A DNA stretch of 63,086 nucleotides, taken from NCBI GenBank assembly GCA_049968235.1, contig JBMFRC010000016.1, forward strand, positions 1 through 63,086, written 5' to 3'. This stretch comes from Candidatus Hydrogenedens sp. GTDB taxonomy: Bacteria > Hydrogenedentota > Hydrogenedentia > Hydrogenedentales > Hydrogenedentaceae. Below are positions 28,260-54,288 of the stretch, in pieces; position 1 is the first letter of the stretch; every line of letters begins with the position of its first letter. Made by a program: the position numbers and the translations under genes. The notes under the pieces are model-generated. The model saw only the letters and a list, made by a program, of their open reading frames with translations, was not told the DNA's origin and made no database searches.

Positions 28260-28261
28260 TT

Positions 28262-30520
28262 TTATTTTAGTAAAGAATAGTCAATATCTTTTTTTAAATG
28301 TTCTGTTGGGATTTGTAAATCTTCCGCTCTATGAAAAGCCTTTTCCACCGCATTTTTATCGCAGGTAATTGCAGAAGGGTGATAAATAAAGTGCCAGCCA
28401 ATGGGTAAAACAGGCTGGAGATGAAATAGCAAGGACCAGCACCAATTAGCAGTTGTAACATTGGATAATCTATCGCAGGTTTGTCCCCAGAACCACCAGA
28501 ATAATGGTTCTTTGTTACATTCTTTAATCAATTGTGCGAAATAGGAGAATGCTCCTTCGTAATCCTGTTCTGCAAAACATTTTACGCCATTCCAGAAAAG
28601 GACCGATAGGTCTTCTTGTGATGTGGCATAATATAGTAATATGCATTCTTTCTCAAAATTTACTTTTGTTGAAAACCCTTCATAAAATTGAACTATCTGA
28701 TTTGGGTTCTGTTCCCATGCGTGCTTTAATAAGTACTCTGCTTGGTTATATTTTTTTAATCGTGCCAACTCCATAGCACACCGAACAAAATGGAAACCTG
28801 TGCGGTCATGATCATAGCGGTGTCTCTTATAAAATATACCTGATGCAAGGCTTGCTTCACTAAATAATTTTCTCGTTAATTTTTTTATGTCTAAATTTAT
28901 TGTGAATATGTTTTCACATTTCAATTTTTGTAAAGAGGAAATTTGATATAGATATATTTTCTGTTCGCCGGGTAAGGTATAAACAAAGAAGTAAAATCCA
29001 TATTGTTTCAATACCGAAGGAAATGTATTTAAGCCTGTTCCATATACATCCGGGATAACAATCCATATCTTCGTTTTTTCTATCTGGTTTGTACCTAAAC
29101 TATTAAAATAAACCTGTGTTAGATTTGCCAATCCCTCCTCAGTATATGCATCTGTTACAGGCAAGGAAATATCTTCATTATTGAGCCTAAAAATGGGCAT
29201 CCAGAAGGGGTCGCGAATTATTACCAAGTCGTGCATCCCTTGATTTTGGGAAATAATTCTCCCTACTCCTTTCCAGTCCATTCGCCATGAACTTTGCGAC
29301 ATAATTCCTATTGGATAAAGAAGCACAACTATAAGAAGGACAATAGCAAACCATTTAATCCATTTTCTTGATTGTGAAAGGAAATAGGCAATCCCAATGA
29401 AATGTAATGGAATGAGAAAGACAATATACCTCGTTGTAAAAACAGGTGGTCCAAGTCGTGCAAGGCAGAACAGTAAAAAAGGAGGGATAGTAAATAAGAC
29501 AAGGAAGAAAAAAGAAATGTGAAATGTATTATCTCTTCGTATCCACCTACGAATAGTTTCATATACCAAACCCAACAAACCTAACAAAGAAAAAAGAACA
29601 AGAGCCAACTCAAAACCTTTTTGAGAGTAATGTAAAATAGACCCAATAATGGAGGACGAATACTGCCACGGATGTGATATACCTATCGGGCAAATTCCCC
29701 CTTTCCCAACAATATTAAGAACAAAAGGAAATGATAATAACTCCCAGAATGAAGGTTTAAGATAATATCGGTGTAATTCACCGGGTTGAGGTGGAATGGT
29801 TAAAATCCAACTGAACCATGGGATTAAAAATATGGAATGTATAATAATTAGAGCAATCGATTTTCTTATATATCTTTTTCCCTTATATGGCACAGCAATT
29901 AAAAGTAAGAACTCTGTAGCCCATATAATTACCCCGATATGGTGTGTCCATAACAACATTTGATTGACAAGTATCCAGAATATAAGGGTTCGATTATTGG
30001 ACATGTTATCCATCACCTTCATGAACAAGAAAAACGAACCCCAGACCAGAAAAAGGTATGCTATATACATCCGTGCTTCCTGTCCAATAAAGATAAGAGC
30101 AGGGGAGAGAGTTATCCCTATGCAGACGAGAGTTTTCGTACCGGCAGGTAACTTACCTTGCCGTTCCAGTTTGTTTGTAATAACCCAGAACATAAGATAG
30201 AAACCTATCCAGATACAGATACTTAACAAACGAATAGAAACAATCCCTGTTCCTGAGTATCTTCCCCAGAGGTATTGACATAAAGGAAACAAAATGCCAC
30301 CGTAAGGATATGTATTCCTTTGTTCTTTTATGAAATGAAATACGGAATGGAGATTTAGATTGGCTATGCATGCATATTCTTCCAGCGAAATGGACTCTTG
30401 AGAAATTCTATATAGACGGAGTAATATCCCGACAATTAGAAAAAAAAGAAAGAAAAAAACGTCATAGTTGATGTTTTGTTTTGAATTTAACAGTATTTTG
30501 TTCTTACTTAGAAGAATCAT
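28262..30520 (-). CDS. GT-C fold membrane glycosyltransferase (ArnT/PMT-like, GT39/GT83-type) with a C-terminal soluble TPR-like domain
   Basis: 752 aa. Transmembrane helix 1 is followed by the acidic loop motif SLEEYACI, at the position of the DE/DExxY motif of ArnT/PMT enzymes. About 11 transmembrane helices precede a 350-aa soluble domain. Confidence 0.55.
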   Translation of the reverse strand: MILLSKNKILLNSKQNINYDVFFFLFFLIVGILLRLYRISQESISLEEYACIANLNLHSVFHFIKEQRNTYPYGGILFPLCQYLWGRYSGTGIVSIRLLSICIWIGFYLMFWVITNKLERQGKLPAGTKTLVCIGITLSPALIFIGQEARMYIAYLFLVWGSFFLFMKVMDNMSNNRTLIFWILVNQMLLWTHHIGVIIWATEFLLLIAVPYKGKRYIRKSIALIIIHSIFLIPWFSWILTIPPQPGELHRYYLKPSFWELLSFPFVLNIVGKGGICPIGISHPWQYSSSIIGSILHYSQKGFELALVLFSLLGLLGLVYETIRRWIRRDNTFHISFFFLVLFTIPPFLLFCLARLGPPVFTTRYIVFLIPLHFIGIAYFLSQSRKWIKWFAIVLLIVVLLYPIGIMSQSSWRMDWKGVGRIISQNQGMHDLVIIRDPFWMPIFRLNNEDISLPVTDAYTEEGLANLTQVYFNSLGTNQIEKTKIWIVIPDVYGTGLNTFPSVLKQYGFYFFVYTLPGEQKIYLYQISSLQKLKCENIFTINLDIKKLTRKLFSEASLASGIFYKRHRYDHDRTGFHFVRCAMELARLKKYNQAEYLLKHAWEQNPNQIVQFYEGFSTKVNFEKECILLYYATSQEDLSVLFWNGVKCFAEQDYEGAFSYFAQLIKECNKEPLFWWFWGQTCDRLSNVTTANWCWSLLFHLQPVLPIGWHFIYHPSAITCDKNAVEKAFHRAEDLQIPTEHLKKDIDYSLLK

Positions 30521-32675
30521 ACAATTTGTATCGCTCTATATTTTCTCGAACATTTCTGAAATCCCATGCATATCTCCAATGCTTGTTATAACCTTTGATA
30601 GAATTATCCTGGGGTACAGCCAGAGTTATTAAAAAAGGTTCCATAGATGGGTTCTCTGCCCGATAAAGCCCACAAAATGAAGTTTCATATCCCTTCGGTA
30701 TCTCAATCCCTTTCCACGCCCCACGAACCCATATAATAGGTTCCTGATTATTAAAGACAATCTCATTTCTTGGTTTGATAGTAGATGCAGAGTAAACTAA
30801 GAAATAGATACTTATCCGATGAGGTATGTTTCCCTTAATATACCAATGGAGGAGTGGGTTTAAGGGTTCTGAAAAATCTACTGCGTAATATGTATTATCA
30901 TATCTGGAATAAATAGAAAAGTCTTTTGCTAATTCAAAATCAGCACGTAGAAACTCAAAAGGGGTTTCCATAATAGGCAGTTCGGATACTTTTTCGAAAC
31001 GGGGTAAGGTTTTTGAAGGTTGGAATAAGATGCTCGTTCCAGTATCAATTTGATTGAGATTTACCTTCTCCCAATTCAATTCGCGATAGGAGGTGATAAG
31101 TTTTAATAACTGATGTTTCTGCCATAAAATTAAAGTTGCATATAGTAATGAACAGGAACAGACTACAATTATCAGAACAATAACACCGTTACGCAGTCCG
31201 ATTAAAATACTTTTTCCGGACAATTCTTTTCGATACATACCGTAAAGGGTTGTAAATAATTCATACATAAACAGAATGACAATTCCGTATAAAATAGGGG
31301 TCAGGTGAACTACATGCCGATATTCAAACAAGATGGAGGGATAACCTAATAGATAACCTAAAACTCCGGAGATTAGTATCCCTTTCCAGATATTTTTCAC
31401 ACTCACAATAAAAATTAATCCCAATAATATCCACGGTCCGATATAAGCAAGAGGAATATCCCAATAATAAAAATGGTCAGTGAAAAAAAAGGACCAGGAT
31501 GGTCGGTTAAATTCCGGATGGTTTTGCTTTTGTTCCCTTGTAAAGTTATAAAGTGTCGAGAAACAATTACTACAAGCGGATAGGATGCGACCCCATAAGT
31601 CCGCAGGAAAATGCCATGCAACAGACCTGAAATAAGCCCTACCTGCAGTCCCGTATGCTGGTGATAAATAGTTATCAAAGGGTTCTTCAAAACCTGTTCG
31701 TCGTGCAAAGGACGCAATTGTTGAATGGACAAGCATATCATTGGGTTCATAAACAAGCCGATAGGAAGAATTACCACCCATTAAGGTTTGTTCGATGGTG
31801 CTTGCAAGACCCTGCACCAATGAATGGCTGGATACCGCCCCTTTATCCTCAGCAATTGCTAACAATATAGGATAGCCTGATGCAAGAAAAGATAGCAGAT
31901 AAAGAACGATACAACCTATACTCGCATGAATTTTCTTATAATATAAAAATTTAGCACCAATGATACCTATAAACACCAGCCCTAAAAAGAATAAAATAAG
32001 TACATCCTGGCGAAATCCCAATCCAATGCCTATTACGAAACCTAATACAGATGAAACAATTGTAGTTCTCCATACATACTTATCCGAAAAATAGAACATG
32101 CTTGCTGAAATTGCAAGGAATAGCATAAAAAAAGTAGTTTTTGAATAATCTCGGATAGATGGCAGGAGAAAAAGAAGAGAGGGGGAATTCATGACCAGGC
32201 AAGTTGTTATAAAAGCAGGTACGCTCCCTCCAAATATATACAAAGTAATGTAAACCGCTATTACACTAAGAACGAAAACTATCCCGGCATATATTTTTAA
32301 TACATCCCAGTTTATTCCAAACCATTGCCATAATATACCTATTGTATATATTAGATAGCGATGTGTCCTTACAAAACGGCTGTTATCCCATGTGCCCCAA
32401 TCTTTGGGTAGGTCAGAAAATTGCAGAGAATTTGTTTTCTGTTCCAGAAACAATCGAATGTTTTTTGGATAAGGTGCTTTAGGTGTCGTGAATCCCTGTC
32501 CACAAGCGATAGATATGGCATTTACCAGCCATTCCTGTTCGAACCGATAGTCCCGTCCAATCATTTTGACACGGATTGTTAAATGTTCATAAACAATCCA
32601 TGAAGAGAAAACAACAATGAGTAAAAAAAGGATTAAATCAATAATAATTCTCTTCATTGTATCGTTTTTGTTCAC
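30504..32675 (-). CDS. Polytopic membrane protein, GT-C-like, of unknown specificity
   Basis: 723 aa with more than 12 hydrophobic helices and a C-terminal soluble domain. It overlaps both neighbours (17 nt and 4 nt), indicating translational coupling. Confidence 0.5.
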   Translation of the reverse strand: MNKNDTMKRIIIDLILFLLIVVFSSWIVYEHLTIRVKMIGRDYRFEQEWLVNAISIACGQGFTTPKAPYPKNIRLFLEQKTNSLQFSDLPKDWGTWDNSRFVRTHRYLIYTIGILWQWFGINWDVLKIYAGIVFVLSVIAVYITLYIFGGSVPAFITTCLVMNSPSLLFLLPSIRDYSKTTFFMLFLAISASMFYFSDKYVWRTTIVSSVLGFVIGIGLGFRQDVLILFFLGLVFIGIIGAKFLYYKKIHASIGCIVLYLLSFLASGYPILLAIAEDKGAVSSHSLVQGLASTIEQTLMGGNSSYRLVYEPNDMLVHSTIASFARRTGFEEPFDNYLSPAYGTAGRAYFRSVAWHFPADLWGRILSACSNCFSTLYNFTREQKQNHPEFNRPSWSFFFTDHFYYWDIPLAYIGPWILLGLIFIVSVKNIWKGILISGVLGYLLGYPSILFEYRHVVHLTPILYGIVILFMYELFTTLYGMYRKELSGKSILIGLRNGVIVLIIVVCSCSLLYATLILWQKHQLLKLITSYRELNWEKVNLNQIDTGTSILFQPSKTLPRFEKVSELPIMETPFEFLRADFELAKDFSIYSRYDNTYYAVDFSEPLNPLLHWYIKGNIPHRISIYFLVYSASTIKPRNEIVFNNQEPIIWVRGAWKGIEIPKGYETSFCGLYRAENPSMEPFLITLAVPQDNSIKGYNKHWRYAWDFRNVRENIERYKLYDSSK

Positions 32676-34249
32676 TTATTATCCGGGTTATCACGGGTGT
32701 TATTGTTATTGTATTTTAACATAATGTTCAAACTATCCTGTGCCAGTCCGTCATCCGGGTAATATCGTAAACACTCCTGATACATCTCAATACTTTTTTT
32801 AATCTCTCCTCTGTTGGCAAATACATTCCCTGACAACCGCATAGCAATTCGGGAATAGGGGTGTTTTTTTAGAAATTCCTGAGCCACTTCATTGGCTTGA
32901 GCAATGTTTTTTGTTTTTAATAACCAATCAATCAATTGCATATTAATCTTTTCATCATTTTGATTAAGTTTATATGCATACATATATCCTTCAACTATCT
33001 TTTCTTCTATTTTATCTCCGAGTTCTTCCGTTAATTGTTTTTCTTTTTCAGAAATAATTTCTTGGGAGATGGGGTCAATAATCACTGCCTTCTGCATCTG
33101 TAACTGTAACAATTCTGTCGCATGATTCCATCCTAAATAATGAGAACAATCTTCCATACTTATCAAAGGAATATCTCCTTTTTCCGTTATAATATTGCGT
33201 TTTTTCAGAATAGTTGAAATTGCCTTAAACCACTCGCACGCGAGCAGATAATTCCCCTCAAATGTGAAGTGAATATTATCACAGAAATACTCATAACCTG
33301 GAATACCCTGCGGACTCTTCTTTGCAAGTATTCCATCCACATCGACCAGATGCACATTTTTTGAAAATATTTTGCATGTATCCACAATACATTTATTCAT
33401 TTCTGTCGGTTCAAAACGGATGGTATCCCATTCCTCTTTTTTTTTGCCAAATTTCCTGTTATAGGATAAAGTTCCTACAATTACATCTGCATGAGCATAC
33501 ATTCCTGCATAAATCATATCCCTTAGGTTATTTTTATATAGTTTTAGGGTTCTTTTCCCCTGTCCTTGTTTTGGAAGAAATGGGAATAAGTCCTTTGGTT
33601 TTTGTTCACGCCACTTTGTACTCTGACTTTGTTCAAATAATTGCACCATTCGAAGATGTTTTAAATAAGTATGTAACCGAATCATAGTATTCGTTCTTAA
33701 AAAAGGAACTGAATACAGTAAGGAATGTTCCCCATAAGGACCAATTGTTTCGTTATTCCCCATGTAAATGATAAAGAAATCCGGCGATAGTTTCGAGCAT
33801 GCCTTTGCCAGGAAATAAAGAACATGGGAATTGATACCCGGGCACGATACATTATATATTTCCCAATTTTTCTCGGGGATAGAGTACTTTAATATAACTT
33901 CTAACTGTCTTACCGAAGATTCCAGTCCATACATTGCAGATTCCCCAAAAACAAATATTCGAAGGGTATCTTTATTTTTTTGTTCTGGGACATAAAAATC
34001 AAGATGGTCCCAATTTACAAAATCGTGCAGTGGAATATTAAAAAATTGTTGATAAAAACTGCGATTAGGGACAGATAGGGTTAGTGTGCTGAAATGTTTT
34101 TGTATAAGAGGTTGTCGGTCTTCGCCCTTGTTTAAGAATCGTAAAGAACATTCAAATAAAAAAAGAATCAATAAAGGTAATAGCCATAGCACGAGTTGAA
34201 TAAAGAGGAATAGTACCTTTCTTCGGAACAGTTTTTGATGTGTCTTCAT
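32672..34249 (-). CDS. SGNH/GDSL-type hydrolase domain protein with an N-terminal transmembrane anchor and C-terminal TPR repeats
   Basis: N-terminal transmembrane segment. Block-I-like RIFVFGESAMYG. C-terminal TPR-like region (YQECLRYYPDDGLAQDSLNIML). Confidence 0.5.
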   Translation of the reverse strand: MKTHQKLFRRKVLFLFIQLVLWLLPLLILFLFECSLRFLNKGEDRQPLIQKHFSTLTLSVPNRSFYQQFFNIPLHDFVNWDHLDFYVPEQKNKDTLRIFVFGESAMYGLESSVRQLEVILKYSIPEKNWEIYNVSCPGINSHVLYFLAKACSKLSPDFFIIYMGNNETIGPYGEHSLLYSVPFLRTNTMIRLHTYLKHLRMVQLFEQSQSTKWREQKPKDLFPFLPKQGQGKRTLKLYKNNLRDMIYAGMYAHADVIVGTLSYNRKFGKKKEEWDTIRFEPTEMNKCIVDTCKIFSKNVHLVDVDGILAKKSPQGIPGYEYFCDNIHFTFEGNYLLACEWFKAISTILKKRNIITEKGDIPLISMEDCSHYLGWNHATELLQLQMQKAVIIDPISQEIISEKEKQLTEELGDKIEEKIVEGYMYAYKLNQNDEKINMQLIDWLLKTKNIAQANEVAQEFLKKHPYSRIAMRLSGNVFANRGEIKKSIEMYQECLRYYPDDGLAQDSLNIMLKYNNNNTRDNPDNK

Positions 34250-34291: not shown

Positions 34292-35296
34292 TTATATATC
34301 TCGCTTCCATTTTTCACGAACGATAAACGCAGGAATACGGTATAAAGCGAGGAAAGAACGCATCGCAAATTCACCGATAATAGAGAGTATTGCTACAATA
34401 ATCAGCAACGAAAAAACGATAACATTCAAAATTAGCCCGGGGGTAATCTCCTTCATAATGCTATAATCCAGGAAGAAGGCAGAAAGGATACGGAGAAAGA
34501 ACAAAAATCCGAAGATAACACATAATATCGCCATCCATTGGAACAAACGTGGAGACATGCGTACCAGATTGTCCATGTTGTATTGCCAGAGACGCCAGAA
34601 GGTATATCCAGATTTCCCATAAGGTCGTGGAAAATGTTGAACGGGCACCTCCACACATCGTCCCGCACGCGAAACCACATCCGCAGTACGGAAAATATTA
34701 AAAGGACCGTATTCAAAAGCACGAACAAGGTCTGCTCGATAAATTTTATAAGTACAGCCGAAATCGGTCAGCGGGATACCGGAAGATTTCCGCATAATCC
34801 AATTAGCAACCTTTGATGGAATGCGTCGGAGAATACTATCCTGTCGTTGTATGCGACACCCGCTTACAACATCAAAACCCTCATCATATTTCTCTATTAA
34901 CTTAGGGACATCTTCAGGTGCTAATTGTAAATCACTATCTATAAGTATAATTGCTTTACCGCGTGCATCCATAATACCTGCGGTAACGCCTGCCTGTTGT
35001 CCTGAATTGCGATATAAATTAATTACTGAAAAAACCCGTTCATCCTCCTTGTAAATTTCTTTTAATATTTCCCATGTTCTGTCGGTACTCCCATCATTTA
35101 CAAATATTATTTCATATGACCTTCCTGTTTTTTCTAAGGTATCTTTTAGACGGCGATGAAATTCACGGATACTTCGTTCTTCATAATAACAACTGATAAC
35201 TATAGAAAACTCTATATCTGAATGCTTTGTATCTATAGCCATCCCTTTATACCTCATTCCCTGATATAGATAGTTCATTTCTCTTGGCAATGGCAA
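34292..35296 (-). CDS. GT2 polyprenyl-phosphate sugar synthase (ArnC/DPM1/GtrB-like)
   Basis: FSIVISCYYEE...EIIFVNDGSTDRT (GT-A DxD region) plus two C-terminal transmembrane helices. The real start may be the internal Met near 35245, which would abut the upstream stop. Confidence 0.8.
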   Translation of the reverse strand: MPLPREMNYLYQGMRYKGMAIDTKHSDIEFSIVISCYYEERSIREFHRRLKDTLEKTGRSYEIIFVNDGSTDRTWEILKEIYKEDERVFSVINLYRNSGQQAGVTAGIMDARGKAIILIDSDLQLAPEDVPKLIEKYDEGFDVVSGCRIQRQDSILRRIPSKVANWIMRKSSGIPLTDFGCTYKIYRADLVRAFEYGPFNIFRTADVVSRAGRCVEVPVQHFPRPYGKSGYTFWRLWQYNMDNLVRMSPRLFQWMAILCVIFGFLFFLRILSAFFLDYSIMKEITPGLILNVIVFSLLIIVAILSIIGEFAMRSFLALYRIPAFIVREKWKRDI

Positions 35297-36029
35297 AAAT
35301 AGACCCGCACATGTCTGGATATTCCAAACCTAAACGATATAATCCATCAATTTGAGATGGTCCCAAAATGCCGGAACGATATAATTGGTCTAATTGGAAA
35401 TCTGCCAATATTTTTAGAAAGATACCCCCTTGATGAATTATTTTAAATCCTTCATGTTCCAGGTCACGGTTTAACCGAACACGGTCGTACATCCTTCGAT
35501 GCCCGTGCTGAATGTCATGTGGTGTAAAATCGTCCAATTCTTCTAATATACGCATATGTCGGGCTAATTGACGGGACAAAGCACGTGAATTAGGAACCAC
35601 GACATAAAGAATGCCATCGGGTAATAGCAATCTTCGAACTCTATTTAACAAAACGGAAATATCCAGGACATGCTCCAATACATATATAGCAAAGATAACA
35701 TCATATTGTCTACCTGTCTTTTCAAGGGTTAATTCTTCGAAAAGAGAGGAAATAAAGCGGACATTGGGAAGATTCTTCTTTTTCCCTTCCCAGATAAAAG
35801 ATGCATTTCCCTCTGCCACATCTAACTCGAACAGCAAAGGAGCTAGCATCTCTGTATCAACACCTTCCGCATATCCTAGTTGAAGTCCTACCATCTTCTG
35901 ATGCAGATAGGGTTGAATGGTCCGCACAATAAGTTCCCGTATAACACGGTCTTGCATGGACCCTTTTGTATATGTCTTTCCTACATGTTCAATAAATTCA
36001 TGTTCATCCATACCATAAACTCCAATCAA
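35247..36029 (-). CDS. Class I SAM-dependent methyltransferase
   Basis: Methyltransferase motif-I region (VGLQLGYAEG) and a post-I acidic region (DVIFAIYVLEHV). Confidence 0.7.
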   Translation of the reverse strand: MIGVYGMDEHEFIEHVGKTYTKGSMQDRVIRELIVRTIQPYLHQKMVGLQLGYAEGVDTEMLAPLLFELDVAEGNASFIWEGKKKNLPNVRFISSLFEELTLEKTGRQYDVIFAIYVLEHVLDISVLLNRVRRLLLPDGILYVVVPNSRALSRQLARHMRILEELDDFTPHDIQHGHRRMYDRVRLNRDLEHEGFKIIHQGGIFLKILADFQLDQLYRSGILGPSQIDGLYRLGLEYPDMCGSIFAIAKRNELSISGNEV

Positions 36030-37362
36030 TCAAACTTTCTATCATATCTACGCTGAACACAGGTATTTTTAATGTCTCATACACTTCCTTGCGTTCCTGA
36101 TAGGAGTCGTCAATGAATATAGGTTTCTTCGATTGAATATAGGACGATTTTTTTTCTCCTTCGTGCAATTCAATAAATGTATTTATTAGTTTATCCAATC
36201 CCAATGAATGTAATGAAATTTCATATTCCCCTTTATGTCGTGTAAGCACAGTTACAGGAATGCCGGCTCCCTTACATTGTATCAGAAATAAAACTACAGG
36301 ATAGTTTAACTTTCCATGAATAACCAGACAATCATCATAATCAATATAAACATGGTCAAAAAAATAGGGTTTCTTTGTATGGGATTGCAATAATGGAGAA
36401 ATGAAAGCTTTGGGAAAATAATTAAATAAACATCTCTGCATTTCCTGTGGGAAAGGCTGTTCCGTAATCTCCACAGGTATACGCAGGGCATCGTAAACAG
36501 TTAGTAACGGTAAATTAACCCCACGATTGCGAAAAAGACCCATTCCTCCACTAACCCGTGGGGCAATTTCAAGGAGAACCAACTCACCATTAGCCCTCTC
36601 TTTCATCTGAAAAAACCAGGCACCTCGAAGTTTTAGATGCTTATTAATTACCTCTGCAAAGCGTATAAATCTATAGCGATTGGTTACCTGCGTATCAACA
36701 CTAATTCCATGAGATATGCGAATACGCTCCCGTGCCCCTGAAAAGATTAATTCCCCTACATAGTTTGTAAAACAATCAATGGTATATTCCTTCCCGGGTA
36801 GATATTCTAAAATGAGTAAATTTTTTTTATTTTCCAGTATTCCTTCCAGTTCCTTCTGGCTTTCTACACGAAAAACCCCTTTTGACCCTTCACCTATCTT
36901 TGGTTTTAAAAATACAGGAAAATAAGGGATTTGATGGGGCTGTTTAAATACTTTCGGAATAGATAATATCCCATCGAAATATTTATAAGTTTTCTCTTTA
37001 TCCCGACAAATCCGACAGGTCTTCACCGGGGAGATTAAAACTTTGCAAGGTAAATCGTGCTGATGCTCCGCCAAATATAATCCTGCTGTATCATGAGCGG
37101 GGAAAATAAAATCAATTTTTAATTTTTCCAATAGCGAACAGAATCTTTTTAGGAAGGACCTTTCGTTTACAAAGGGTAGTCCGGTGTAGTAATGTTTGAA
37201 CAGCATACCCCCCGGATCATTTTCGAGGCTGGTGGCACCAAATAATTCTATATGCTGAGAATAGGACAAAGAACGAAATATTTCAAGTCCTATTTCTGTC
37301 CCTCCCGGAAAAATCATTACACGGACAGGCTTTTTTAATTTTGAAGTGTCCCTTCTTTTCAT
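36004..37362 (-). CDS. ATP-grasp ligase domain fused to a C-terminal HAD-like phosphatase domain
   Basis: N-terminal pre-ATP-grasp and ATP-grasp pattern (VRVMIFPGGTEIGLEIFRSL...KPKIGEGSKGV...LILEYLPGKEYTIDCF). The C-terminal ~110 aa carry HAD-like motifs (YIDYDDCLV...IFIDDS). Confidence 0.6.
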   Translation of the reverse strand: MKRRDTSKLKKPVRVMIFPGGTEIGLEIFRSLSYSQHIELFGATSLENDPGGMLFKHYYTGLPFVNERSFLKRFCSLLEKLKIDFIFPAHDTAGLYLAEHQHDLPCKVLISPVKTCRICRDKEKTYKYFDGILSIPKVFKQPHQIPYFPVFLKPKIGEGSKGVFRVESQKELEGILENKKNLLILEYLPGKEYTIDCFTNYVGELIFSGARERIRISHGISVDTQVTNRYRFIRFAEVINKHLKLRGAWFFQMKERANGELVLLEIAPRVSGGMGLFRNRGVNLPLLTVYDALRIPVEITEQPFPQEMQRCLFNYFPKAFISPLLQSHTKKPYFFDHVYIDYDDCLVIHGKLNYPVVLFLIQCKGAGIPVTVLTRHKGEYEISLHSLGLDKLINTFIELHEGEKKSSYIQSKKPIFIDDSYQERKEVYETLKIPVFSVDMIESLIDWSLWYG

Positions 37363-38522
37363 GTCTCAGCCCATTCAGGAAAAATTTTTATCATCTCACA
37401 AATTTTTATAACATATTCATGGGGTAAATTCCCATACATAGGCAAACATAAAACTCGTTCTGCTGTTTCATCTGCGTTAGGTGTCGGTATTTGAGGAATA
37501 TCGACTCTTTTTGCATAATAGGAGATGCGATTGCATAAGGGGTAAAAATATTTTCGCACAATCACATTACATTGGCGAAGTCTATTGAACAATTCATCCC
37601 GTGAAATACCATACTTCATTTTATCTACCTCAATAGGGAAGTAAGCATAATTCCAATCACAGTCTTTGGGTTCTGTAACCGTTCGAATCCCGGGGCAAGC
37701 ACTTAACTTTTCACAATATAATTTGTATAAATCTTTCCTTTTCCTTATTTCTTCTGCTACTTTTGGCAATGATGCAAGACCAAAAGCAGATGAAAGTTCG
37801 TTCATTTTTCCATTAATTCCAACGCCGACGACAGTTTCTTCATCAGCAATTCCGAAATTTTTCATTAAATATGCCATTCGTGCCTGTTCCGGTTTATGAC
37901 AGATCAAAGCTCCACCTTCTGCTGTTGTAAATAGTTTAGTTGCATGAAAACTCAACACGGATAAGTCCCCGTAATCACATAAAGAACGTCCTCGATACCA
38001 ACATCCAAAGGTATGTGCGGAATCGTATATTATCGGTATAGAATATTTTCTTGATAATTTAGAGAAAGCGTCAACATCGCAAGGTATTCCATAAACATGC
38101 ACCGGTAAAATGGCTTTTGTGTTCGGAGTTATATATCTCTCTACCATTTGTGGGTCCAAATTATATCCACCCGACTGAATATCGCAAAACACAGGTTTCA
38201 ATCCGTTCCAACAAATAATATGAGGTGTAGCCGGGAAAGTAAAGGGAGTTGTGATAACCTCTCCTTCTTTTATATCCAGTATCTTTAATGCTATCAGTAG
38301 GGCTATAGTCCCGTTGCAAAATAGAACCAATTCCGATACATTTAGAAATTTTTTTAGTTCAGATGTAAACTGCTGATGCCAGTAGGCTTCATTTGTAAGC
38401 CAGAGCGTCTCCCAGATTTTTGAAAGAAAAGAACTATACTCTACCTCTGCAGGCATCATGGGTCGTGTTACATATACTGTTTCCGGAAATCGTTCTTGCT
38501 CGATATATTCATTTAATTCCAT
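37359..38522 (-). CDS. DegT/DnrJ/EryC1/StrS-family PLP-dependent sugar aminotransferase (ArnB-like)
   Basis: SFHATKLFTTAEGGALI contains the PLP-binding Lys. I prefer the start at MELNEY (38522). The ORF-track start at 38645 would overlap the divergent gene. Confidence 0.85.
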   Translation of the reverse strand: MELNEYIEQERFPETVYVTRPMMPAEVEYSSFLSKIWETLWLTNEAYWHQQFTSELKKFLNVSELVLFCNGTIALLIALKILDIKEGEVITTPFTFPATPHIICWNGLKPVFCDIQSGGYNLDPQMVERYITPNTKAILPVHVYGIPCDVDAFSKLSRKYSIPIIYDSAHTFGCWYRGRSLCDYGDLSVLSFHATKLFTTAEGGALICHKPEQARMAYLMKNFGIADEETVVGVGINGKMNELSSAFGLASLPKVAEEIRKRKDLYKLYCEKLSACPGIRTVTEPKDCDWNYAYFPIEVDKMKYGISRDELFNRLRQCNVIVRKYFYPLCNRISYYAKRVDIPQIPTPNADETAERVLCLPMYGNLPHEYVIKICEMIKIFPEWAET

Positions 38523-38615
38523 ATTTTCGATAACCTCATTTCGAAGATGACAACTAAAACCCGTTACAATAATACAATAAATTTTATTTAGTTTAACATA
38601 ATCGGTGTCATTATT

Positions 38616-39665
38616 ATGAATAAACAAAAATATTCGGAAATACAATCAAAAGATTATCCTTACAAAAATAAGGGTATTCATGTTCTTGTAAACATAGGCT
38701 TATTTCTTGCAAGTCTTCTTCTTTGTTTTACTATTGCAGAAATATTTTTTGCCTATTGGGAAATGAAACTTCTCAAATCTATGGGGGTGTTTATACCCGT
38801 TGACCCGCGTTACGATGGTTCTGCATGGGAAGTAGACCCCATGCAGGCAAACCGTTTTACATGGCAATCGGATGGAAACAGTATTGTTCACATTCGCTCT
38901 AAAAATAAAAAACTTATGTATGAACTGCGACCCAATTCGGTAATTTCCGGAATGATAAAAATTAATTCGGATGGTTTTCGTGACCGTGAATTTTCTCGCG
39001 AGAAGCCACATCATGTGTTTCGAATCGCAGTAGTTGGAGATTCTGTTACTTTTGGCTGGAGACAAAGATTGGAAGATACCTATCCCAAAAAATTAGAACA
39101 ACTCCTTCAAGCAAATAACAAAACAAACACACAAATTGAAGTGCTAAATTTTGGAATAGGTGGTTATAATGCAGAGCAGGAGGTTGAACTTATAAAAACA
39201 AAGGTGCTTAATTATAATCCTGACCTTATACTTATCGGTTTTTGTCCGAACGATGGGCAAATCGGTTTCGATGGTGGGCTCTGGTGGCATTTTTTTCGCG
39301 GACCTTCCCGAACAATTTCTTTTCTCAAACTCCTGTATTTATACAATAAGTATAAGCATGATGACCTTGCATTGTTAAAAAATCCTTATTCGGAATTGGC
39401 AGAACTATCAAGGCAGAAAAATATTCCTGTTTGTGTATGCATTTTCCCGATGTTGCAGGGAGATAAACTCTGGTGTCCACCCCGTTTTATTCCTTTATTA
39501 GATGAATTAAAAATTCCTTATATTAATCTTATTCCGGAATTTGAAAAGAAAAATGTACCGGAACTTTTATTAGACGTAGTGCATTTTACGGTAGCAGGGC
39601 ATTATTTTGTTGCAGAACAGATATACCATTATCTTACGGAAAACAAAATAATCTCCTTACAATGA
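38616..39665 (+). CDS. SGNH/GDSL hydrolase family protein with an N-terminal transmembrane anchor
   Basis: N-terminal transmembrane helix. Block I RIAVVGDSVTFGW and block III LILIGFCPND. Confidence 0.6.
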   Translation: MNKQKYSEIQSKDYPYKNKGIHVLVNIGLFLASLLLCFTIAEIFFAYWEMKLLKSMGVFIPVDPRYDGSAWEVDPMQANRFTWQSDGNSIVHIRSKNKKLMYELRPNSVISGMIKINSDGFRDREFSREKPHHVFRIAVVGDSVTFGWRQRLEDTYPKKLEQLLQANNKTNTQIEVLNFGIGGYNAEQEVELIKTKVLNYNPDLILIGFCPNDGQIGFDGGLWWHFFRGPSRTISFLKLLYLYNKYKHDDLALLKNPYSELAELSRQKNIPVCVCIFPMLQGDKLWCPPRFIPLLDELKIPYINLIPEFEKKNVPELLLDVVHFTVAGHYFVAEQIYHYLTENKIISLQ

Positions 39666-41214: not shown

Positions 41215-41368
41215 ATTTTAACCCTTATCCCAGTTTGTTAGTTTAAAAACTTAATCAATTGTATTTCAAAACGAATAAATACTTCAATATTTTATCAAAA
41301 TACAGGGTTGGAAATACGACTATAGTTTTAATGTTAAAAGGTTAACCGATTTTGTCAGTAAAGATGAG

Positions 41369-41397
41369 TTGCAAAACGATTATATATATGGTATTAT
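41369..41397 (+). promoter_or_regulatory. Candidate sigma-70 promoter of groEL
   Basis: TTGCAA at 41369-74, a 17-nt spacer, then TATTAT at 41392-97. The CIRCE element follows immediately. Confidence 0.55.
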
Positions 41398-41398
41398 A

Positions 41399-41425
41399 TT
41401 AGCACTCACCATAAGTGAGTGCTAA
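41399..41425 (+). promoter_or_regulatory. CIRCE element (HrcA operator)
   Basis: TTAGCACTC-ACCATAAGT-GAGTGCTAA is an exact match to the consensus TTAGCACTC-N9-GAGTGCTAA. It lies about 75 nt upstream of the groEL ATG. Confidence 0.9.
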
Positions 41426-41475
41426 CAGAAATCAAAACTATAAAATATTACTTTCCTTGAATGAACTTGTTTTAA

Positions 41476-43116
<1,641 letters not shown>

Positions 43117-43142: not shown

Positions 43143-43178
43143 AGGAGGGAAGTTCAAACTTCCCTCCTTTTTCTTTTA
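43143..43178 (+). terminator. Rho-independent terminator after groEL
   Basis: Stem AGGAGGGAAGTT / AACTTCCCTCCT followed by TTTTTCTTTT. Confidence 0.75.
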
Positions 43179-43323
43179 CTCATAAACAAGACAATTTACA
43201 TGATGGTATTTTTTCCTATCTATTTTATTCTGTTGTCATTATAAGTATGAAATTCATTTTAATTACCCTTTATTGCTACAATATAGAGTGTTAAAAAGAA
43301 GTAATCGATAAGAAAATGAAAGT

Positions 43324-45501
43324 ATGAAATCACCTCGTAAACCTAATAAAAAAGATTTTTTATTTGATTTGTTTGGATTTCCTATACTGCCGATACAGGG
43401 TGCTTTGCGTGTAAAGAAAAAGGATGGTCATATTGAGCCTTTTAGTATTCAGAAATTAGCAGAATCTATTAGAAAGGCTCTTCAATCGGCGGAGGTAGAC
43501 GAAAATGGATTGGATTACAGTTTTGCCACTGCTGTAAAAACCTATCTACGCGAGTGTCATGGGCTTGAGGCTATTATATCTAGCCAGGAAATTAATGCTA
43601 TAACCATTCAGGTGCTTCAAGAAATGGGACAGACCCGAACAGTTCGCCATTATAAAGAATTCTCCCGTCAAAAGCACCTTCAGCAACATCTTATTGCAAA
43701 TACTAAAATCCCTTCAACTCAGCCCCGAAAAAAAACGGAAGTACCCTCTAATGGATATATCTATCTCTTCCAAAAAGACAGCGACATGATTACAGAGAAG
43801 ATACACTATTTATTGGAACCGTTGCAGATAAAAAAGGATATTCAAGAAAATATTATTAAACAGGTGTTGGAGATACTTAATGGGATTCAATGTCAGCATC
43901 CTTCATTGGGTTTTCTTAGTGAATTATGTTCAATGTTATTAAAGAAAGAAAAAATTTTAATTCCTCATAAACATTCTTTACTCAATCTTCATACAAACGA
44001 CTGTATCGAAATCATTAAAAGTATCAACACAGGTAAAATAACGCCACTTAATACAGATATTTTTTTAGGGAAAAAAGTAAAAGAGCAGGTATCTCGTTCG
44101 TTAATATTCTCTTCGGATGTTATTGATGCCCACGATAAGGGGTATATTTACATACATATATTGGACCAACCCGATAAATTAGGGTCTCTTTATCAATCTG
44201 CACTTTTTTTGTGGTTATGTGGTAAGAACAAGACTTCTACCATCCATACTCCTCATGATTTCTGGGATTTGCTTAAGAACACGTACTCTCAATGGAAGGA
44301 TTTTTTCATAAATCCGGTAACCTTCTGGGGAGTTAATTGGGCTATTGCACCATTATTAAAAGGGCTGGAGGGAAATGATTACAAAAATTGGCTATTTCGA
44401 TGGTTAGAAGAGTGTGAAAGAATTAGCGAAGAAAATCCGGGGATACAGGTGGTTCTTGATTGGGCAGTACCCGAGAAATGGGCAACTGCTTATGCATTCG
44501 GTAATTGCGGAAAAAATTTAGGAACAGCCTATTCTGCTTATCAACAAACAGCACAAGAGATGATGACGGATATTTTGGCATGTATTTGCAATAGAGAAAA
44601 GAATTTATCCTCAGCCCATCCATTTATATGGCGGTTTAATCTACCCTTACAAATTGCTCCATCCCATGCTTTTCTACCTTTGCTTGTTTCCTGTGTGGAA
44701 GATAAGGAAATCCCCGTAACAGTGGGATTTATCCCCCTTGATTCTTCTGTCGATATATCTCCTCAAATTAGTCTGGGAGGAATTACCATTAATCTTGTTC
44801 GCCTTGCCTATAAAAATCCAACAGAAACGGGTTTTTATTCTGCAGTTTTTCAAACGATCTTGTTAGTAATCCGCGTTTATGAGGAGATACTGAATTTTTT
44901 ATCAGGATATTACGGAGATACAAAGGGAGGTATCTGGAAATATTTGTTAGAGCAAATCTATAAAACCCCCGGTGAAGTTCCTTCATTCACCACTTTTCCT
45001 TTCAATTTATTTCTTAGTGGAACGAGAGAGGCTTTACATATACTAAACGCTAATAAAGAAGTGAATAATAACGAAATGTGGACAAGAGCAGAAAATCTAC
45101 TGAAAAAAATCAGGAGTATGGTTTCAAGTTGTATTAAAGATAAGAATCTCAAAATACAGTTATGTTTAGAAACAAATACAGATATTTTAAGGAAGTTGGC
45201 TCAAAAAGATATGGATGACCTCTATGACTTATTTGTTCAATTAAAGCGAGAAGAACCTTTTCAATTTATTCCTCAGTATGCGGATGAAATAGCACCGCTT
45301 TTGTTTTATCATCCGGATGAACTTATCCCTCAATTTAAAATGCTATTTAACATAGCACAGTTGCTGGATATTCCTGTTAGAACTCATTTTGCTCCTCAAC
45401 GTGTTTGGGATAGTTTGCTTCTGGGAGAAGTAATACATCTATTTGCTCAGACAAATGAAAAGAATGCCCCCGTTTTATTAAGATTTATTCCCTCTGAGTA
45501 A
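43324..45501 (+). CDS. ATP-cone domain protein with a ~630-aa uncharacterised C-terminal region
   Basis: Residues ~28-110, LRVKKKDGHIEPFSIQKLAESIRKAL..., are a clear match to the ATP-cone consensus (V.KRDG..EPFd..KI...i..A). I do not recognise a glycyl-radical RVCGY motif, a C-terminal Zn ribbon or an NxCxE thiyl loop. Confidence 0.6.
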   Translation: MKSPRKPNKKDFLFDLFGFPILPIQGALRVKKKDGHIEPFSIQKLAESIRKALQSAEVDENGLDYSFATAVKTYLRECHGLEAIISSQEINAITIQVLQEMGQTRTVRHYKEFSRQKHLQQHLIANTKIPSTQPRKKTEVPSNGYIYLFQKDSDMITEKIHYLLEPLQIKKDIQENIIKQVLEILNGIQCQHPSLGFLSELCSMLLKKEKILIPHKHSLLNLHTNDCIEIIKSINTGKITPLNTDIFLGKKVKEQVSRSLIFSSDVIDAHDKGYIYIHILDQPDKLGSLYQSALFLWLCGKNKTSTIHTPHDFWDLLKNTYSQWKDFFINPVTFWGVNWAIAPLLKGLEGNDYKNWLFRWLEECERISEENPGIQVVLDWAVPEKWATAYAFGNCGKNLGTAYSAYQQTAQEMMTDILACICNREKNLSSAHPFIWRFNLPLQIAPSHAFLPLLVSCVEDKEIPVTVGFIPLDSSVDISPQISLGGITINLVRLAYKNPTETGFYSAVFQTILLVIRVYEEILNFLSGYYGDTKGGIWKYLLEQIYKTPGEVPSFTTFPFNLFLSGTREALHILNANKEVNNNEMWTRAENLLKKIRSMVSSCIKDKNLKIQLCLETNTDILRKLAQKDMDDLYDLFVQLKREEPFQFIPQYADEIAPLLFYHPDELIPQFKMLFNIAQLLDIPVRTHFAPQRVWDSLLLGEVIHLFAQTNEKNAPVLLRFIPSE

Positions 45502-45559: not shown

Positions 45560-47107
45560 TTATTCCCACTCAATTGTTGCAGGGGGTTTTGATGTTATAT
45601 CCGTTAACACACGATTAATTCCTGAAACTTCATTACAAATACGGCTGGCAGTTCTTTGAAGAATATCCGGAGAGAATCGGAACCAATCCGCAGTCATAGC
45701 GTCTTCAGATGTAACAGCACGAAGAACACATACCTCCTTATAAGTTCTTTCATCACCTTGAACTCCTACACTTTTGACAGGGAGCAAACAAACAAAAGCC
45801 TGCCAGATTTGATTATACAAACCGGCTTTTCGAATTTCATCAATGAATATAGTATCCGCTTCTCGTAAGGTATCCAATCGTTCCGCAGTTACTTCGCCAA
45901 TGCATCGAACTGCAAGACCGGGCCCCGGAAAGGGATGCCGATGTATAATTTCATCCGGTATTCCTAACTGTTTGCCAACATCTCGGACCTCATCTTTGAA
46001 CAATTCACGAAGCGGTTCTATCAATTGTAAATTCATCTTCTCGGGAAGTCCGCCAACATTGTGGTGACTTTTAATAGTCGAAGAAGGACCCCCTGTTGCA
46101 GATATAGATTCAATAACATCAGGATATAATGTTCCCTGAGCAAGGAAAGATAGGTCTCCTAATTTTTTGGCTTCCTCTTCAAATATTTCTATAAATAGTG
46201 TGCCGATAATTTTCCGTTTTTGTTCCGGGTCTGTTATCCCTTTCAGAGCCGATAGGAACCGTTCTTGCGCCTTAACACAATGCAGGTTTATATGAAAGTT
46301 ATCGCGAAATACCTTTTCCACCATCTCAGGCTCACCTTTTCGCAATAGTCCGTTATCTACAAATACACAGTGCAGATTATCTCCGATAGCACGGTGCAAC
46401 AGTACTGCGGTAACACTGGAATCAACGCCACCACTAAGGGCACATAAAACTTTCTTCCCATTGATTTTTTCCTGTAATTCTTGAATGGTTTGCGTTATAA
46501 AATTGCCCATAGTCCATGTAGAGTCTGTCCCGCAAATAGCATGGACAAAGTTGGATATAATTTTTTGTCCTTCCGGTGTATGCACTACTTCCGGATGAAA
46601 CTGCACTCCATAAAGTTTCCGTTCCGGATTACCAATTACTGCAAAGGGACAATTCTCCGTTGCCCCCATTGGTATAAAACCGGGGGGAATTGCAGTTACC
46701 TGGTCGCCGTGGCTCATCCAGACAGGTGTTTCCTTATGGACACCTTTTAGCAACTCCGAATTCCCTTTATGCTTTAAATATGCAATTCCGTATTCTTTCT
46801 GATGTGCAGGTTCTACCTTACCACCAAACAATTGAGCGAATATTTGAACGCCATAGCAAATACCCAATATCGGAACTTGTAAATCAAAAATTTCCAGTTT
46901 GGGCAGAGGAGCATTGGGTTGATGGACGCTGGCAGGTCCACCACTCAGCACAATGCCTGCTAAATTTGGAATGTTAATCTTTTCAAGAGATACATTATAA
47001 GGAAGAATAATACTGTAAACGCCTGCCTCTCGGATGCGTCGTGCTATGAGTTTGCTATATTGAGCACCAAAATCAAGAACAATAATTACAGGTCCTTTGT
47101 ATTCCAT
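45560..47107 (-). CDS. guaA: GMP synthase (glutamine-hydrolysing)
   Basis: Class I GATase domain (VIIVLDFGAQYSKLIARRIRE...GICYG). ATP-pyrophosphatase P-loop SGGVDSSV. C-terminal dimerisation domain ending IEWE. Confidence 0.95.
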   Translation of the reverse strand: MEYKGPVIIVLDFGAQYSKLIARRIREAGVYSIILPYNVSLEKINIPNLAGIVLSGGPASVHQPNAPLPKLEIFDLQVPILGICYGVQIFAQLFGGKVEPAHQKEYGIAYLKHKGNSELLKGVHKETPVWMSHGDQVTAIPPGFIPMGATENCPFAVIGNPERKLYGVQFHPEVVHTPEGQKIISNFVHAICGTDSTWTMGNFITQTIQELQEKINGKKVLCALSGGVDSSVTAVLLHRAIGDNLHCVFVDNGLLRKGEPEMVEKVFRDNFHINLHCVKAQERFLSALKGITDPEQKRKIIGTLFIEIFEEEAKKLGDLSFLAQGTLYPDVIESISATGGPSSTIKSHHNVGGLPEKMNLQLIEPLRELFKDEVRDVGKQLGIPDEIIHRHPFPGPGLAVRCIGEVTAERLDTLREADTIFIDEIRKAGLYNQIWQAFVCLLPVKSVGVQGDERTYKEVCVLRAVTSEDAMTADWFRFSPDILQRTASRICNEVSGINRVLTDITSKPPATIEWE

Positions 47108-47113
47108 AATTGA

Positions 47114-48718
<1,605 letters not shown>

Positions 48719-53421: not shown

Positions 53422-54288
53422 TTATGTTACGGTATAATTCATCAATTCTTCTATAAATGCATGTTTATCAAAATAAAGGTTAATAATATCAATTAACAGT
53501 CTGTTATTTAAACCTGCCATGGTCCAAACATCTTCTCGTAAAGGATGTAATTCATGTTCATAAGCAGAAAGCCCTGATGCTCGAACAATATAATCTGCAA
53601 CACATAATGAAGCACAAATGAGTTGCTGTCGTTCATTTTTAGCGTCCCAGGGTTCATGATGATATTGGACAGCGGTGCATAAATCCTCCGATAACTTCCA
53701 CTCCTCTGCAATTTTTCCGCCTACCTGAGCATGGTCAACGCCGATAATTTGTTGTTCTATCGCTATCCATGAGCCATAACCACCTTCCTTCGCACAATGA
53801 CAGACTCCTGCCCAATGTTTAGGTAAAAACTCCAATAAAAACATTTTACCTATATCATGAAGCAAACCGAAAACAAAACCCGTATCTCCTTTTGTATATA
53901 CTTCTTTCAATGGTCCCATAGATACTACAGAATCCATTGCAACCCCTACTGCAACACTATGCATCACCATATTCTGTGCCATCTTTCCCATTTGAGAGAA
54001 AACGGTCGCAGTAATTACTAAATTGCGAATTACTTTTGTTCCCAGTAAAACAATTGCATGTTCGATAGAGGTAACTTTTTGTCCTAAACCGTAATATGCG
54101 GAATTAACCAATCTTAGTAATTTGAATGAGATGGAAGGGTCTAATGAAATGGCATGGGACAAATCTGCAAGTTTTGTGTTTGGGTTCTCAATAATTGCCA
54201 AAATGTTTTGAACAGATGCAGGAAGACTTGGAAGAGTTACTGTTTCCGATAAAAGGTTTTCAACTGTGTATTTTGTTAACTCTTCCAT
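53422..54288 (-). CDS. HDOD domain protein
   Basis: LPSLPASVQNILAIIENPNTKLADLSHAISLDPSISFKLLRLVNSAYYGL...LLGTKVIRNLV is the HDOD consensus. HD-like residues (HDIGK) are retained. Confidence 0.8.
   Translation of the reverse strand: MEELTKYTVENLLSETVTLPSLPASVQNILAIIENPNTKLADLSHAISLDPSISFKLLRLVNSAYYGLGQKVTSIEHAIVLLGTKVIRNLVITATVFSQMGKMAQNMVMHSVAVGVAMDSVVSMGPLKEVYTKGDTGFVFGLLHDIGKMFLLEFLPKHWAGVCHCAKEGGYGSWIAIEQQIIGVDHAQVGGKIAEEWKLSEDLCTAVQYHHEPWDAKNERQQLICASLCVADYIVRASGLSAYEHELHPLREDVWTMAGLNNRLLIDIINLYFDKHAFIEELMNYTVT

Follow-up and report, generated by a model that had tools for sequence, protein, structure and literature searches.

An ATP-cone protein of Candidatus Hydrogenedens is a member of a clade of class III ribonucleotide reductase homologues that have almost certainly lost catalysis and may sense nucleotides

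The gene described here encodes a 725-residue ATP-cone protein and lies in a 63,086-nucleotide stretch of contig JBMFRC010000016.1 (assembly GCA_049968235.1) of Candidatus Hydrogenedens sp., hereafter the window. Public records label its product 'ATP cone domain-containing protein'. The protein is almost certainly a dead homologue of NrdD, the class III ribonucleotide reductase (RNR): judged from alignments, it is without every element of radical catalysis and most of the substrate-binding elements. It is fairly probable that it is a pseudoenzyme descended from a cone-bearing, nrdR-linked class III NrdD, which would act as an ATP/dATP sensor docking onto a partner. A nucleotide-sensing regulator is the most likely role, because the radical parts are lost, the ATP/dATP-sensing domain is kept and a putative docking peptide has been gained. 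Coordinates are collected in Table 1.

The open reading frame (ORF), which includes its stop codon, is the only one listed at its position in the window. Pfam PF03477 matches residues 29–116 with an E-value of 1.1e-10 (42.3 bits, the cutoff being 25.8), which bears out the N-terminal ATP-cone described in an earlier note made from the DNA sequence. The protein also matches the Pfam NRDD family PF13597 above its gathering cutoff (32.7 versus 26.2 bits). Foldseek, the check that the earlier note had proposed for the region after the cone, returned an NrdD-type barrel at residues ~150–725, the 34 best matches all being NrdD chains. By sequence (PF13597) as well as by fold (the NrdD-type barrel) the window protein thus belongs to the RNR/glycyl-radical-enzyme superfamily. 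Searches of PDB sequences, whether with the protein itself or with the profile of its family, yielded non-significant matches only; homology to solved NrdDs was therefore established through structure and through an intermediate sequence, the canonical sister NrdD P0026. On the NrdD equivalog model TIGR02487 the window protein scores 28.4 bits against a cutoff of 326.35, compared to 417.5 bits for P0026 and 106.9 bits for P0018, a member of the broad clade described below. On the NrdR model TIGR00244 its score is 15.1 bits against a cutoff of 124.65.

Landmarks of NrdD catalysis were anchored via P0026, aligned to the solved NrdDs of P. copri (8p23) and S. thermophilus, with residue roles taken from PMC11226230. 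They were counted in an alignment of 88 sequences, comprising 15 members of the window family, 68 of the broad clade and 5 canonical NrdDs. The catalytic landmarks lost from the window protein are all present in the 5 canonical NrdDs. In the window protein the finger-loop tip S-x-C-C-R-L is deleted, including the radical cysteine (P. copri Cys416, in an SCCR or MGCR motif) and the ~12 residues that follow. The radical cysteine column holds Cys in 0/15 family and 0/68 broad-clade sequences, and no Cys occurs within ±25 columns of it in any window-family member. The βA cysteine (P. copri Cys171) is 92.6% conserved in class III enzymes (PMC9669993). At its position the family has Ser (11), Asn (2) or Thr (2), and Cys is found in 0/68 of the broad clade and 0/83 of the non-canonical sequences, against 5/5 canonical ones. 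The alignment to NrdD that the earlier note had suggested for the active-site cysteines thus finds the radical and βA cysteines gone.

The C-terminal elements are missing as a block. Canonical NrdDs run on past the last barrel strand into the Zn ribbon and glycyl loop, whereas the window protein ends there. An R[VI]xGY glycyl-radical motif is absent from the protein, as are CxxC pairs of any kind. The four Zn-ribbon cysteine columns are gaps in 83/83 sequences (15/15 family, 68/68 broad clade), and so is the column of the radical glycine (P. copri Gly711) in 15/15 and 68/68, with Gly in 5/5 canonical NrdDs. The absence of a glycyl-radical motif and Zn ribbon, reported in the earlier note, is confirmed in this way. 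Substrate-binding parts have also been lost. The columns of the NxN flap are gaps in the window family, and loop-2 GGQ is lost in the window protein. The triphosphate-binding motif HxHD is degenerate, and the TPAE substrate-phosphate loop of canonical NrdDs (P. copri Glu581) has been replaced (roles from PMC11226230; Table 1); the Glu581 column was located by counting in the alignment of P0026 to the solved NrdDs. The earlier note had left room for an ordinary NrdD or NrdJ whose motifs had escaped the eye. This is not the case: the catalytic elements are truly absent, and TIGR02487 gives 28 bits where 326 are required. Of the alternatives it offered, that of a highly divergent, inactivated RNR paralogue proves right.

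What remains is the NrdD scaffold with a few conserved residues. The order of N-terminal ATP-cone, helical region and 10-stranded barrel is that of NrdD, which is the best structural and sequence match of the window protein. The two share the motifs A-H..G, N..AP, T-x-N-L-P-R, G-L-x-E, R-x-A-x-x-D and Y-T, a common ancestry and, in parts of the clade, an upstream nrdR. They differ in that the window protein is devoid of the NxN flap, βA cysteine, radical cysteine, TPAE loop, Zn ribbon and glycyl-radical domain (GRD), in the loss of NrdR boxes and in an extra conserved N-terminal peptide. Asn490 is Asn in 13/15 family, 68/68 broad-clade and 5/5 canonical sequences; Gly566 is Gly in 15/15, 68/68 and 5/5, and Glu569 is Glu in 15/15, 62/68 and 4/5. 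The surviving residues E200, H270, H278, N338, N490, G566, E569, D629 and Y652 are conserved in canonical NrdDs as well.

At least 15 clusters, with identities as low as 28%, have intact ORFs of 723–736 residues, and the full-length orthologues show no internal stops. The Nei-Gojobori ratio of nonsynonymous to synonymous substitution rates (dN/dS) between the window gene and two orthologues is 0.13–0.20, a value to be taken as approximate because dS is saturated. An alignment of the 12 closest members (A1) has 160 invariant columns. The protein is thus very probably functional and under selection. That the gene is a decaying, functionless remnant is scarcely credible: its very long branch and its 28 bits on the NrdD equivalog model would fit decay, but the intact frames, the low dN/dS, the strongly patterned conservation and an architecture kept across phyla speak against it.

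The most conserved segment of the protein is a peptide that precedes the ATP-cone by ~10 residues and is present in every window-family member as F-L-F-D-L-F-G-[FL]-P-x-[LI]-P. Mean column identity is 0.86 in this peptide and, next to it in rank, 0.83 in the cone; it is lowest in segment 121–150 (0.49). In A1, L13, F14, D15, L16, F17, G18, P20 and P23 are invariant. Two AlphaFold2 models were used to assess disorder by predicted local distance difference test (pLDDT), and in both of them residues 1–25 are disordered (pLDDT < 50). At the same position the broad clade carries a nearly invariant E-G-x-[FLY]-D-x-Q-L-S-[FL]-P-x-P. None of 18 canonical sister loci encodes the peptide (0/18), and its origin therefore coincides with the loss of catalysis.

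The gene had been called an orphan in the earlier note, a description that does not hold in view of the PF13597 match and of the relatives recovered. The window family has 15 full-length members at 28–79% identity, and an exhaustive profile search returned 364 related cluster representatives, of which 138 reach E <= 1e-10. The great majority of the 150 best representatives are without both glycyl motif and Zn ribbon, with canonical NrdDs scattered among them. The clade with the same losses amounts to ~100 representatives at 50% identity, from Hydrogenedentota, Nitrospiraceae and further lineages, most of them uncultured. GTDB genomes were scanned with an alignment of 10 broad-clade sequences as query, and the 80 loci obtained were sorted computationally into three groups. 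The first consists of genes without a GRD (GRD-less), mainly from Hydrogenedentota and Nitrospiraceae. Canonical cone-bearing sisters from Omnitrophota, Ratteibacteria, TA06, Edwardsbacteria and others form the second; nearly all of these have nrdR in front. Cone-less canonical NrdDs of Thermodesulfobacteriota and relatives make up the third.

In a neighbour-joining/Poisson tree (200 bootstraps) the window family has 100% support, and the GRD-less clade that carries the peptide motif has 95%. The window family is best read as the fast-evolving Hydrogenedens-lineage orthologue of the broad clade, since a Hydrogenedentota metagenome-assembled genome (locus L021, on a 2-Mb contig) has a broad-clade-type gene convergent with guaA-guaB, the identical setting to that in the window and in loci L001–L006. 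The clade arose from nrdR-linked NrdDs that carried a cone and an S-x-CCRL finger loop. This finger loop, found in the sister group, resembles the double-cysteine SCCR motif, which has been linked to the thioredoxin-dependent enzyme of N. bacilliformis (PMC9669993).

A class III clade without both the GRD and the cysteines is not described in the literature searched, RNR surveys included. The nearest entry is a 'NrdD-like paralog ... no NrdG' of Chloracidobacterium, which resembles the present clade as an NrdD-like gene without activase in bacteria that are not strict anaerobes. It is an entry in a literature table only, and its source paper gives no motif or function analysis. Catalytically dead herpesvirus R1 homologues are another example of a retired RNR scaffold and resemble the window protein in this respect; they are viral and class I, as opposed to a cellular class III protein that has kept its ATP-cone. 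Names given to clade members by NCBI/JGI are 'anaerobic ribonucleoside-triphosphate reductase', 'ribonucleoside-triphosphate reductase', 'ribonucleoside-triphosphate reductase (formate)' and 'hypothetical protein', and P0162 is a 'transcriptional regulator NrdR family protein' at JGI. GRD-less members P0187, P0079, P0233, P0175 and P0230 are among those named as reductases. The naming points to systematic misannotation of GRD-less members.

Two further kinds of locus were noticed. The P0168/P0049 type, seen at locus L010 (7080–11153), is a second GRD-less, Cys-less NrdD-like type without the N-terminal peptide. There, an apparent operon runs from dCMP deaminase through nrdR (8-bp overlap) and the GRD-less gene to a 333-residue radical-SAM protein. 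As this type lacks the peptide and groups with other canonical NrdDs in the tree, an independent loss of the GRD is suggested. Among the canonical, nrdR-linked sisters (Omnitrophota, TA06, Vermiphilus and others) there are split NrdDs. Their barrel gene stops just after the Zn ribbon, and the RVTGY glycyl-radical loop is on a separate ORF of ~100 codons with its own GGAGG ribosome-binding site. Such loci are L024 (5974–8677) and L029 (884–3550), as well as L022, L025, L028, L041, L050 and L051; the gap is longer in L032, L036, L038, L039 and L047. In some, the small glycyl gene lies 0.3–2.5 kb further downstream, before a radical-SAM gene. The arrangement has the look of a class III RNR made naturally in two pieces and recalls the GrcA/YfiD spare-part proteins. 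The split glycyl subunit of the sisters and the second, independent GRD loss suggest that the enzyme turned into a pseudoenzyme in steps.

In an all-against-all census of 27 GRD-less loci the only recurrent neighbours are guaA (Hydrogenedens lineage and L021) and nrdR. The latter lies directly upstream on the same strand in six loci (L008, L010, L013, L018, L023 and L046), and this arrangement is the ancestral state, as in the canonical sister clade. NrdR regulon promoters have tandem boxes ~31–32 bp apart. Tandem NrdR boxes 32 bp apart are present upstream of canonical sister operons and in no GRD-less locus examined. A lone NrdR-box-like palindrome (43276–43291, CTACAATATAGAGTGT) with 3 mismatches to ACACWATATATWGTGT is located 33 bp before the start codon of the window gene. 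Regulation through it was considered and rejected: 38 of 100 shuffles gave at least 2 such matches in the window, which is chance level, and the site is absent in L001 and L004. At a broad-clade locus on a 4.1-Mb contig (L007, 8656–13356) the gene starts 8 bp after a gene for a Mrp/ApbC-type Fe-S carrier ATPase with DUF971, and ends 12 bp ahead of one for an RlmI-like PUA methyltransferase. Neither recurs at other loci, and both were dismissed as conserved operon partners.

How such a protein could work may be outlined as follows. Nucleotide sensing through the cone is likely. The cone's K32, K/R33, F/Y113 and K117 (K33 and F113 in the window protein) align with Lys7, Arg8, Tyr83 and Arg87 of P. 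copri NrdD, which contact nucleotide (PMC11226230). Because the cone keeps these residues, it is proposed that it would still bind ATP/dATP and that binding would shift the conformation or oligomeric state, as happens in RNRs and NrdR. The barrel in its remodelled form would act as scaffolding and might still bind nucleotide via Asn490, Glu569 and His278; attachment to the partner would be through the N-terminal peptide. The earlier note had suggested a nucleotide-pool-responsive factor, which stands as the most plausible function. The purine link it drew from guaA/guaB is weak, because the synteny is confined to Hydrogenedentota, the genes are convergent and form no operon with the ATP-cone gene, and the arrangement is absent from most of the clade. 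Among known proteins NrdR is similar in being non-catalytic, with the ATP-cone as the only recognisable ligand-sensing module, and is genetically linked in several lineages. NrdR differs in size (~150 residues) and has a DNA-binding N-terminal Zn ribbon; the window protein has 725 residues with a 575-residue NrdD barrel and no Zn ribbon.

As docking partner the β sliding clamp is a tentative choice, with which the protein would report deoxynucleoside triphosphate (dNTP)/ATP status at the replisome. The clamp-binding consensus is QL[S/D]LF or QxxLF, and Hda binds tightly through the hexapeptide QLSLPL (PMC12309361). The clamp is preferred because Q-L-S-[L/F]-P of the broad clade, QLSLF in P0018, matches QL[S/D]LF and the Hda hexapeptide; with QLS[FL]P, and QLSLF in P0018, the broad clade fits the clamp-motif pattern QL[S/D]LF, QxxLF or QLxLxL. 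Residues 8–27 of the window protein, which take in its version of the peptide, read KKDFLFDLFGFPILPIQGAL. Like Hda and other clamp-motif proteins, the clade has a short motif in a disordered N-terminus directly before a nucleotide-binding module. Unlike Hda, it has no AAA+ domain and no homology to that protein, the Gln is missing in the window family, and clamp binding is proposed from resemblance. No link between an ATP-cone and the clamp was found in the literature searched. The wider proposal, in which this widespread dead class III RNR clade is a clamp-tethered ATP/dATP sensor coupling dNTP supply to replication elongation or initiation, is rather doubtful.

Several points weigh against this picture. 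The function as a whole is deduced, that of the cone from few aligned residues, and the position of P. copri Arg91 is Gln121 in the window protein. The clamp idea is motif resemblance alone. The conserved peptide extends over ~25 residues compared to 5–6 for a typical clamp motif. The window-family version, FLFDLFGFP, has no Gln at motif position 1, a residue important according to the literature. No replication gene recurs beside the gene in the neighbour census of GRD-less loci. The tree is a simple neighbour-joining/Poisson one in which the long-branched window family adjoins another long branch (P0162).

Some of the same observations could be explained by a regulator or partner of a real RNR or of NrdR, not of the clamp, though this is unlikely. 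The protein might join a working NrdD or NrdJ in inactive heteromers via the class III dimer helices, or it might contact NrdR cone to cone, the peptide driving nucleotide-dependent self- or hetero-association. RNRs and NrdR oligomerise through their ATP-cones (PMC11226230), and the peptide both exceeds a minimal clamp motif and abuts the cone 'roof', the site of cone-cone contacts in P. copri NrdD. The nrdR gene is immediately upstream in the six GRD-less loci named above, with the 8-bp overlap in L010. However, this linkage is ancestral in the canonical sisters and may be inherited only; most GRD-less loci, the window included, have lost it, the tandem NrdR boxes are lost in GRD-less genes, and no RNR gene recurs nearby.

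The other alternatives retain catalysis. In one, the barrel has been remodelled into a new non-radical enzyme that carries out another reaction on a nucleotide or other substrate under control of the cone. The former active-site polar residues Asn490, Glu569, His270, His278, Asp629 and Tyr652 are near-invariant across the clade and the whole barrel is under purifying selection, which counts in favour of this reading. But the retained residues are those conserved in canonical NrdDs and hence point to inherited structure or ligand binding. The clade has no new invariant polar constellation, the NxN flap, HxHD Asp, TPAE and loop 2 are degraded, and no metabolic operon partner recurs. The new ATP-cone-regulated enzyme that the earlier note had entertained is therefore quite improbable, and finds no support in a protein that has lost substrate-binding elements along with the radical machinery. 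That the protein is still an RNR which obtains its radical otherwise, such as from a separately encoded glycyl-radical subunit, is very improbable. Sister loci do encode the glycyl loop on a separate gene of ~100 codons, so a GRD in trans is possible in the lineage, and downstream of the L010-type GRD-less gene there is one for a radical-SAM protein. No known RNR does without the finger-loop cysteine (PMC9669993), yet the radical and βA cysteines are absent in all family members, the finger-loop tip is deleted, and the NxN flap and TPAE loop are gone too. A glycyl radical given in trans could not start catalysis, as no acceptor cysteine remains. A GRD supplied in trans was rejected for the window, which has no GRD-like ORF.

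The conclusion that the protein is a pseudoenzyme is solid and useful for annotation. The clade members named as reductases are incapable of radical chemistry, and in Hydrogenedentota, Nitrospiraceae and related metagenome-assembled genomes, counting the clade as class III RNR would lead to a wrong dNTP route and a wrong oxygen tolerance. The clamp-sensor reading would be much more important but is unproven. If true, it would define a new class of replication regulators that derive from a metabolic enzyme now retired. If the peptide binds the clamp, the protein would connect dNTP pools with the replisome directly. It would also give the ATP-cone a third home beyond RNRs and NrdR: strong selection maintains the cone here in a protein without catalysis, and this would be the third way in which the nucleotide switch is used.

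Table 1. Positions in the window of the ATP-cone gene, its parts and its neighbours
Feature	Position	Strand	Basis or remark
Complete ORF; ATP-cone protein, almost certainly a dead NrdD	43324..45501	+	ORF listing, terminator upstream, convergent guaA, dN/dS
N-terminal peptide, residues 12–23, FLFDLFGFPILP	43357..43392	+	Derived form of clade motif EGxFDxQLS[FL]PxP; candidate docking motif
ATP-cone domain, residues 29–116	43408..43671	+	Pfam PF03477, pLDDT > 90, family conservation
Disordered linker, residues 129–149	43708..43770	+	pLDDT < 50; poorly conserved
NrdD-type helical region and 10-stranded alpha/beta barrel core, residues 150–725, without catalytic elements	43771..45498	+	
Degenerate HxHD motif, residues 276–279 (YIHI), second His (H278) alone kept	44149..44160	+	Column counts
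Ser288 at the βA cysteine position (P. copri Cys171)	44185..44187	+	Anchored via P0026 to 8p23
Shortened finger loop, residues 472–480	44737..44763	+	Alignment blocks
Kept motif T-x-N-L-x-R with Asn490, residues 488–493	44785..44802	+	Column counts
Kept motif G-x-x-E (canonical G-L-x-E), residues 566–569	45019..45030	+	Column counts
Residues 616–619 (ETNT) replacing the TPAE loop	45169..45180	+	Column counts
C-terminus RFIPSE, residues 720–725	45481..45498	+	Protein stops at final barrel strand
groEL	41500-43116	+	Upstream neighbour
groEL intrinsic terminator, 11-bp stem then T run	43143-43168	+	Upstream boundary of transcription unit
guaA	45560-47107	-	Pfam; convergent with ATP-cone gene
guaB	47114-48649	-	Pfam; beyond guaA

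The location between groEL and guaA/guaB given in the earlier note agrees with the coordinates, guaA-guaB being convergent. Because of the strong groEL terminator upstream, and with guaA convergent downstream, the ATP-cone gene appears to be monocistronic. The guaA-guaB pair (45560..48649, minus strand) is conserved beside the gene by synteny in the Hydrogenedens lineage but does not belong to the functional unit. No RNR, nrdR or NrdG-like gene is present in the 63-kb window, whose Rfam and tRNA scans gave no matches. A radical-SAM gene is not found next to the ATP-cone gene in the window or in L001–L006; the sole radical-SAM protein of the window (21504–22871) has UPF0004, Radical_SAM and TRAM domains. 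PADLOC gave no matches for the window protein or P0018, and the neighbours are housekeeping genes. A defence or phage origin was rejected on the PADLOC result, the sole PHROG match being to the NrdD family, through the cone.

A few other features of the window were observed. In the region 41215–43116 the groEL gene is solitary: the 285 bp upstream of it hold no groES-sized ORF, and its neighbour is a divergent PfkB/cytidylyltransferase gene. The C-terminal tail of this GroEL departs from the Gly-Met-rich type usual in such proteins. At 26550–34249, four large ORFs in a row (569, 752, 723 and 525 codons) have no Pfam match at E <= 1e-5 and adjoin genes for a glycosyltransferase, a methyltransferase, an ATP-grasp protein and a DegT-type aminotransferase (34292–38645); the region may be an uncharacterised surface-polysaccharide or glycoconjugate cluster. 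Two signalling proteins unrelated to the ATP-cone gene are encoded at 60713–61984 and 53422–54288, one with MshEN (cyclic di-GMP-binding) and cyclic nucleotide-binding domains, the other an HDOD/HD protein. An 814-residue fusion at 12054–14498 joins pyridine-nucleotide-disulfide oxidoreductase, rhodanese, TusA and DsrE-like domains, so that one chain combines a whole set of sulfur-trafficking modules; DUF1638 and DUF72 genes lie downstream.

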